From a virus (Duplodnaviria > Heunggongvirae > Uroviricota > Caudoviricetes): DNA of 22,959 bases. Numbering within the stretch: the stretch's first letter is position 1; each line of letters opens with the position of its first letter. This document shows, in pieces, positions 12,001 through 15,000 of this stretch. Location of the stretch: IMG/VR virus record IMGVR_UViG_2526164691_000026, one strand, 5' to 3'. The position numbers are program-made.

Positions 12001-15000
12001 GACCCGAAAAACACCGGCAAACATCTTGGCCCCTGGTCTCCGGATGGACACCTGGGCGACCTCCCTGCGCTGTTCGTGACGCATGACGGAAAAGCGAACT
12101 ACCCGGTCCTGGCCCCGAGACTGAACTCATTAAAAGAGATTAAAGGGCGTTCTCTCATGCTTCATGCTGGCGGTGATAACCATCATGACCATCCGGAGCC
12201 CCTGGGCGGTGGTGGTGCGAGAATGGCCTGCGGCATCATTCAATAATCAGTCAGGTAAGGGGCGGGCCCCTTACCTTTATTCCTCAGGACGATAAATCCT
12301 TTCTCCCTGAAAAGAACGGCACATCCTCCCTCTCTGAGTTAATGTTTTTGTCGTGACATAAGAATAATTCCTTACACTCAATCTTCGTAACTCTCCCGCA
12401 GTTCCTGTCCGTGAGCACTGCGGGATTTTTTCGCTTTTATGCCTGCCGCCCGATAACCACCACCTTCCCGTCACCGCCTTCATCACGGGTACTGATGTCC
12501 TGGGATATACGGCGGGAGCCAACCAGCATTTCACCGTAAGGCACCGGCATCGGGTTCCCCTGGGCAATCATGTTATCCAGCGAGGAAAAGTACGTGTTCT
12601 GTCTGCCGTTATCCGTGCTTTTGTACTCCGGTACTTTAGCCTTCGGGGCCAGCATCTGAGCCACACCACCCAGAATCATGCTGGCCCCCAGAGAAAACAG
12701 CATCGTGGTGGCAGAAAAACCACCGGCTGCCAGGGCTGAACCCCATAACGCCATTGATGCCCCGGCCGTGAAGAACGACCCCACGATGGCTGCCGCCCCC
12801 AGCACAATCTGCAGTCCGCCCTTTCCGGCTCCGGCCAGTCGCGGCACAATATGGATGACCGCCCCCTCACCCAGAGGTTCGTGAAGACGGGCGTACACCG
12901 CCTCCGGTGCCGTGTCCTCACCGCGAATACGTATCTGGTACCAGCCTTCGTTCATCTGACGGCGGAATCCCGGCACCTGTAACGACAGCGCCCGGATGGC
13001 TTCCGCTGCCGTGTTCACATACAGGCTGAGGCGGCGGCCAAATCGTTGCAAATCCCCGTGAAGGCAGATGCGTGCCAGTGGCGGTGACGCCAGACAGAAT
13101 GCGTTCGTCGTTGCCATTTTTCGGAATACCTCTCCCGTTTACTCAGTTGTTCAGGCAGATGGTGAAGCAGTTCACCGTTGCCGCAGTAAATGGCGGCATG
13201 ATTGGCCACCGATGCGCCAAAGCAGCACAGCAGGATATCGCCCGCCTGTGCAGAGGACAGGGGCACCCGGTAAAAGCCGGTGACCGCCATATTGTCCAGG
13301 TAAAGGTTCTGACCGTTGCGCCACCAGTCATCCTCACGCTCAAAATCCGGCATATCAATTCCCGCCAGATGGTAGGCATCCCGGAACAGCGTGTAACAGT
13401 CCGTCACCCCGTGCTCAAAGCGCCGTCCTGTCAGATGTGGCACACAGCGGAATTTATGAATTTCCCCCCGGCAGACCAGCCACCAGGACAGTGCACTTTT
13501 TATCTGCAGCCGCCGGTCGGCCTCGCTCAGCCAGGGCAGACCACCGGGATGACTGTGGACCAGTGTCACAATCTCCCCCTGCATCTCTGCCCGCAGCCAG
13601 TCTTCCGGTGCAATACGAAAATACGCCTCCGGCTCTGCAGAGATATTCACACAAGGGATATACCGCTCCCCCTCCGGCGTTCTCACCACGAAGCCGCACG
13701 ACTCCGCAGGCGCACACCGCCGGGCATGCGCCAGAATCGCTGATTCAGTCTGTGTCATAAACCGGGATTTACTGCGAAAGTTTATTAATGGAAAGGAAAC
13801 CGCCAAAATTAGCCACCATGCCGCGCATCTCACACCCGCGCATGCACTTGCTGCATCTGTCCTTACGGATATCGGTGATGGGTTTATCGAACTCATCCGC
13901 CACAGCCCCGCCCGTGTAACCACACTCATCAGAGCGGTAGGTCCACATACAGGTATTCGCCAGCATAATGCGACCGGGAAACAGCGCTCCGTCCGTCTCC
14001 GTCGGTGTTGCCAGCACAAACGAGGCTGTCATGGCCGTCAGCTCTGACATCTGCTCCACCACCCAGCGGTCGCTCAGCTCCTGCTCCGGGTCCGCTTCCG
14101 GATTGCCCGCCACAAAATTCACCGCATCCAGAAAACGGGCATACACCCGGCGGCGGACCACCGTGGCCCCCACCAGGCTCTGCAGGTCCTCCGCCATCCC
14201 GGTGACCAGACCAAAACAGATTGGACACCGTCAGCGACGGTCTGGCACTGCTGCCCTTCCCGTTCATCTCAAAACCGCTGCCGTCAATCGGGTATACCTG
14301 ATATTGCCGCCCCTGCCAGGTGACCGCCTCCCCTTTTTCATTCAGCTCATTACAGAAAAAATACCGCTCACCGCCCTGCACCGTCAGGTCAATTTCCCAG
14401 AGCACCACCCGCGGTGACTGCTCTGATTTAACCGACTCGTTCAGACTTTCTTCGTGAATATCCTGCATCAGTTCACCACCTGCTTAAACTCCGCGCTGAA
14501 TTCAACCCGCAGCATGCGAACCCGTGATGACCAGGCGGCACAGGTCACCTTTATCTGCCGCCAGGCATAAGGCGGTGTCCACAGAAACGCCTTCCAGCCA
14601 CCGTGCTCTGCCAGGAATGCCTCCAGATGTCGGGCCTCCTCCCGGGTCACGGAAAGCGTCACACGGTATGTTTTCAGGTCAGCATTCAGCCCCGCCGCCA
14701 TACGCTGCGAATACCCGTCACCAAAACGCACTTCACGCACCGATGGCTGCGAGTTCACCTCCATATCCGGCTTCACTTTCCAGCGAAATGTTTTCATCGC
14801 CTGCCTCCGGAAAAGACGCCGCCATCACGCATCTGCGCCTGAATCTCATCCTGCGCCCCCTTGCGGGCCATGTCATACACCGCCTTCATCAGCTGCGGCC
14901 CGCCTGTCCGTTGGAGCCGTCGTTCTGAATCACCACGTGATTGTTCTGATTAAAATTAATGCCTTCCGTCCGCCGCATCTGCGCCGAACTTCCGGCACCG

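Follow-up and report, generated by a model that had tools for sequence, protein, structure and literature searches.

The break that divides tail tip gene L into two overlapping reading frames is very probably a sequencing or assembly artefact, namely a homopolymer-length error in a draft consensus, rather than a mutation in the bacterium. The window (the whole stretch of viral DNA that was analysed, 22,959 nt) comes from the 2012 draft of Escherichia coli O26:H11 strain DEC9B, for which a later complete genome, NZ_CP074760.1, is available. Since the complete DEC9B genome and the related copies that were checked lack the extra base, the break in L is almost certainly a one-base error. In the real genome, L would then be intact and encode an ordinary tail tip protein of the lambda type, 232 aa long.

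Gene L and the source of the window

The two overlapping ORFs that an earlier note on this DNA had described in L were recovered on the minus strand (Table 1). The 179-aa ORF starts with MQDIHEES and follows the L frame as far as TVSNLF, running out of frame afterwards. The 142-aa ORF extends from MAEDLQSLVG to INKLSQ, with no obvious Shine-Dalgarno sequence upstream of its internal ATG. Both matched Pfam family PF05100 (Phage_tail_L), the former over profile positions 3-57 (E = 2e-21) and the latter over positions 63-206 of 206 (E = 5e-59), and together the two matches amounted to a full-length match to the profile.

The coding strand at the site reads CTG TTT TGG TCT. Deleting one T from the run gave TVSNLFGLVTGMAEDLQ and a single ORF of 232 codons, as the earlier note had predicted (about 232 codons). 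The AAAA run on which that prediction was based does exist within 14190..14220, at the position shown in Table 1 and not at 14204..14207. The restored protein was 100% identical to WP_061317110.1 of the complete DEC9B genome. It was also colinear with lambda gpL (PDB 8iyk_L), residues 1-232 aligning to residues 1-232 without gaps (E = 2e-122). In our own alignment of the two proteins, 177/232 residues were identical and the cysteines of the C-terminal Cys-rich segment, which in gpL binds an Fe-S cluster, were aligned. The stretch of lambda L quoted for comparison in the earlier note, TVSNLYGMVTGMAEDMQ, was found in the same gpL chain. In the complete-genome annotation, and likewise in the Pfam calls for the draft contig, L lies in a lambdoid tail module, flanked by M and K.

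Table 1. Positions of gene L, of the differences between the draft and the complete DEC9B genome, and of nearby lesions (window coordinates)
Feature	Position	Strand	Remarks
Tail tip gene L, lambda gpL homologue (PF05100)	13769..14468	-	700 nt in the window vs 699 nt elsewhere
ORF of 179 aa	13929..14468	-	L residues 1-85, then 94 residues out of frame
ORF of 142 aa	13769..14197	-	L residues 91-232; begins at an internal ATG
L run, AAAA on the plus strand (TTTT coding)	14213..14216	-	Draft A4 vs complete A3; holds the extra base that splits L (frameshift); 3-base run in all other sequences examined
Tape-measure gene H	14889..17372	-	827 aa in the draft vs 859 aa in all relatives
H run	14899..14901	-	Draft CCC vs CCCC (G3 vs G4); 1-base deletion
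Intergenic run between the nleL start and the nleG remnant	4993..4997	.	Draft A5 vs complete A6 (T5 vs T6)
Gene J patch	9860..9903	-	4 substitutions in 44 nt, private to the draft; one amino-acid change, V576I
Contig-end patch	22857..22954	-	5 substitutions vs the complete genome, in the final 103 nt of the window; inside a repeated S49 peptidase gene
nleC	1..2323		IS3-family insertion at about 612..1930; lesion also in complete DEC9B
nleG	4999..5587		Split into ORFs of 71 aa and 125 aa; lesion also in complete DEC9B

The J protein of the window was recorded for exactly one contig, AIGL01000040.1 (GCA_000249915.2). The window occupies positions 83947..106905 of this contig, its last base being the contig's final base. 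Window bases 1-3000 and 1-20000 were present exactly in two overlapping stretches of the contig, which also carries the identical truncated H and the 142-aa L fragment. AIGL00000000 is the assembly of DEC9B, an stx-negative O26:H11 strain of ST29 from the USA, 1979 (Hazen et al. 2012; PMC5592225, Table 1). On the strength of the J protein, the exact contig matches and that published table, the window is therefore the DEC9B draft. Over its whole length it matched positions 3168981..3191940 of the complete genome at 99.95%. The platform used for the draft was presumably 454 and/or Illumina.

Comparison with the complete genome and relatives

In the complete DEC9B genome, L is annotated as an intact gene of 699 nt with TTT at the site. 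The earlier note had proposed that L would prove intact if the raw reads showed AAA instead of AAAA, and in substance this is the case, as AAA is present on the plus strand of the later assembly. A comparison with L of closely related prophages, also proposed there, gave the same 3-base run in every relative compared: B1_2, H19, AUSMDU00014361, UTME-9, ML775, 36348 (LDXD02000010.1) and UGEG01 (UGEG01000003.1).

The search was then widened to other genomes and contigs. Among complete E. coli genomes there was no exact match to the window L, all of the 40 best matches being 699 nt long, one less than the query of 700 nt. A search with the 90 nt centred on the L site matched 4,803 places in 1,641 complete-genome records, and in none of these records (0/1,641, DEC9B included) did the identity reach at least 99%; the best 15 of the 1,641 all spanned 89 nt, without the extra base. 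The corresponding survey of the H site, covering 3,279 records, had the same outcome. When an exact pattern accepting either TTT or TTTN was used, TTT was present in 41/41 IMG/VR contigs and 26/26 metagenome contigs and TTTT in 0/67. A run of four T at the L site was thus found in none of the 1,641 complete-genome records searched, the 67 viral and metagenome contigs or the eight close relatives. A scan of species-representative genome contigs with the L-site pattern returned no match, these representatives apparently being without this L allele. A look-up of the exact 179-aa product also returned no match, which is uninformative because gene callers had left that ORF uncalled on the draft contig.

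The window differed from the complete genome by three 1-base indels and by nine substitutions confined to two tight patches (Table 1). Extending the comparison by 7.4 kb into the chromosome added a fourth indel and zero substitutions. This fourth indel (draft A6 vs A7) lies at the 3' end of hprR on the draft contig, about 7 kb beyond the window start (position 20147 of the extracted stretch), and lengthens HprR from 223 to 253 aa in the draft; the homopolymer errors thus extend beyond the prophage, into a chromosomal gene for a conserved response regulator. All four 1-base indels in the resulting ~30.4 kb were in homopolymers, in runs of 3-7 bases and in both directions, and no isolated substitution was found over the same ~30.4 kb. 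The deletion in the tape-measure gene, a second frameshift that the earlier note had left unmentioned, is 685 nt from the L site and private to the draft; it causes H to end prematurely in ...NGQAGRS and a stop. The intergenic A5 was likewise private to the draft, with A6 in complete DEC9B and 14 other related loci.

At all four indel sites, complete DEC9B, 36348 and UGEG01000003.1 agreed with one another and disagreed with the draft. B1_2, H19, AUSMDU00014361, UTME-9 and ML775 also agreed against the draft, as did six further assemblies at the intergenic site. The pattern carries the signature of consensus error, because four private homopolymer miscounts occur without an isolated substitution and are contradicted by the assembly of the same strain and by relatives. 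The H and intergenic indels are of the same artefact type as that in L.

The two substitution patches were examined separately. For 161 nt around the J patch, the draft was 100% identical to a paralogous J at 797839..797999 of NZ_CP074760.1, within the tccP2-carrying prophage of DEC9B. This identity suggests that the draft consensus blends reads of the paralogous prophage at J (a chimeric consensus); a gene conversion missing from the complete genome is the less likely reading. At the contig end, the draft variant is the allele found at this locus in B1_2 and AUSMDU00014361, and the repeated S49 peptidase gene is a place where an assembler would be expected to break and mix copies. Because the J patch is a paralogue allele and a further substitution patch lies at the contig end, the draft consensus is demonstrably unreliable in this region.

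Explanations for the extra base

The extra T in L lies in a homopolymer, is private to the draft, is absent from the same-strain assembly and is accompanied by similar errors outside the prophage. From these comparisons we infer a read or consensus error as its cause. In this region, which is one of several near-identical lambdoid prophages, the draft consensus would have miscounted four short homopolymer runs and would also have taken in reads from paralogous prophages. Several considerations count against an error. Runs of 3-7 bases are short and less error-prone than long ones, the two assemblies may derive from separate laboratory stocks of DEC9B, and the complete genome, if it had been polished against homologues, could in principle have had a genuine private frameshift overwritten.

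It is improbable that the stock of DEC9B used for the 2012 draft had recently acquired a genuine mutation. Under this explanation L (and H) would have been lost, the prophage could not make its own tails and the cargo genes would have been kept. The extra base is, after all, present in the sequence as deposited, and real defects are frequent in the prophages of EHEC and EPEC (PMC2669165). Damage is also seen within DEC9B itself: in the complete genome, the integrase gene of this prophage is annotated as frameshifted, its nleC contains an IS3 element and its nleG is split, and a paralogous prophage has an internal stop in its tape-measure gene. However, the complete genome of the same strain is without the L frameshift, and none of the four indels is shared by any clonal relative examined (36348, UGEG01 and others). 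Homopolymer indels of 1 base would have had to arise independently four times within 30 kb, once in hprR, without a single isolated substitution; extrapolated to whole genomes, two stocks of one strain would differ by about 700 indels but by almost no point mutations. Were the 2012 frameshifts real, that one stock would only very recently have lost a working tail module in a prophage that carries effectors, and the strain's four other prophages with an L gene might supply tails in trans.

The earlier note had offered both a sequencing artefact and a defective or domesticated prophage. The former is supported by the absence of the frameshift from complete DEC9B and from all relatives examined. 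The latter finds no support in L or H, as the lesion was neither reproduced in the strain nor shared by relatives. The accompanying statement that the prophage probably cannot make infectious tails is too strong even for a real frameshift. Interactions between prophages allow defective EHEC prophages to be packaged and transferred (Asadulghani et al. 2009; PMC2669165), and DEC9B has five copies of L, so a real defect in one of them need not abolish transfer. The claim that nleL, sodC and lom are intact held, the window being identical to the annotated complete genome in those genes.

Import of the extra T from a paralogue is less probable still. Reads from a genuinely frameshifted paralogous L elsewhere in DEC9B would here have entered a collapsed-repeat mis-assembly, a scenario given some substance by the multiple L copies and by the J patch, which demonstrably carries the allele of a paralogous prophage. 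Against it, the L-site 90-mer with TTTT is absent from the complete DEC9B genome, and the window flanks of the L site match the orthologous copy and not the J-donor paralogue. That paralogue has TTT and an intact L, and was therefore ruled out as the origin of the extra T.

Recoding, either by a +1 ribosomal slip of tRNA-Phe on UUU_U (CUG UUU UGG) or by transcriptional slippage on the T4 run to give full-length L, is scarcely credible. A +1 slip on UUUU could formally occur and would yield the exact wild-type protein, but complete DEC9B has the unshifted gene, a run of only four T's does not suffice for efficient transcriptional slippage, and a programmed +1 frameshift was rejected given zero conservation of the extra-base arrangement among the other copies examined.

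As a homopolymer-length error, the L frameshift is no real biological feature. Together, the L and H frameshifts would mislead an annotator into calling the nleL/sodC/lom prophage tail-defective, when the re-sequencing of DEC9B gives an intact tail module in this region. In the DEC9B draft, homopolymer runs were miscounted, the consensus blended paralogues and a substitution patch lay at the contig end. Within paralogous prophage genes, drafts of polylysogenic EHEC and EPEC strains are unreliable, and a prophage 'defect' needs support from a closed genome or from reads before it is interpreted biologically.

The prophage and related systems

The locus is an ordinary lambdoid prophage tail module with a standard gpL. 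In the annotation of complete DEC9B, the module has the order Z-U-V-G/T-H-M-L-K-I-(sodC)-J-lom-tail fibre and is followed by the effector cargo, comprising an nleG remnant, nleL and an nleC interrupted by an IS3 element. The lesions in nleC and nleG are probably real because they are also present in the complete genome. B1_2, H19 and AUSMDU00014361 have an intact nleG of 196 aa. The integrase, located beside tRNA-Ser at NZ_CP074760.1 3218781..3219831 and thus outside the window, is annotated as frameshifted in the complete genome. It too is probably a real defect of the prophage, an error of the complete assembly being possible.

Other irregularities were observed in the module and its relatives. 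A GGGAAAG motif is present at 17811..17817 (minus strand), near the end of gene G (17793..18224) and just upstream of the T ORF (17353..17766). We take this to be the slippery heptamer of lambda G/GT, at which the -1 programmed frameshift of the tail assembly chaperones is expected. In the complete genome, the tape-measure gene of the DEC9B paralogue that carries tccP2 (NZ_CP074760.1 790362..793604) is annotated with an internal stop. In H19 (NZ_AP027165.1; 1241..3612 of the extracted locus), two CDSs, for a hypothetical protein and a pentapeptide-repeat protein, are annotated in place of the nleL orthologue, which appears to be disrupted or mis-sequenced. The orthologous prophage of UTME-9, a pig strain (NZ_CP157110.1; 6183..12544 of the extracted locus), has frameshift annotations in J, I and K and a split L containing an internal stop; these defects are either true decay or long-read assembly error.

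Three known systems were used for comparison. With one T removed, the window L resembles lambda gpL (PDB 8iyk chain L, PF05100) in its length of 232 aa and its gap-free alignment, and the gene order H-M-L-K-I-(sodC)-J-lom is that of lambdoid phages. The draft L differs from lambda gpL in being split into products of 179 and 142 aa by one extra base, the complete DEC9B copy being unsplit.

The second comparison is with the defective lambdoid prophages of EHEC, such as the Sp prophages of O157 Sakai (PMC2669165). Like these, the prophage in the window is lambdoid, carries T3SS effector genes and sodC/lom as cargo, resides in a polylysogenic attaching-and-effacing E. coli and has real defects nearby (the IS3 element in nleC, the split nleG and the integrase annotated as frameshifted). 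Unlike such defects, the L and H frameshifts of the window vanish in the complete genome and in all relatives.

The third comparison is with the homopolymer-length errors of draft bacterial assemblies. As in these, the indels of the DEC9B draft are single-base over- and under-calls in runs of 3-7 bases; they occur in one assembly, an independent assembly of DEC9B being without them, and they affect prophage, intergenic and chromosomal DNA alike.
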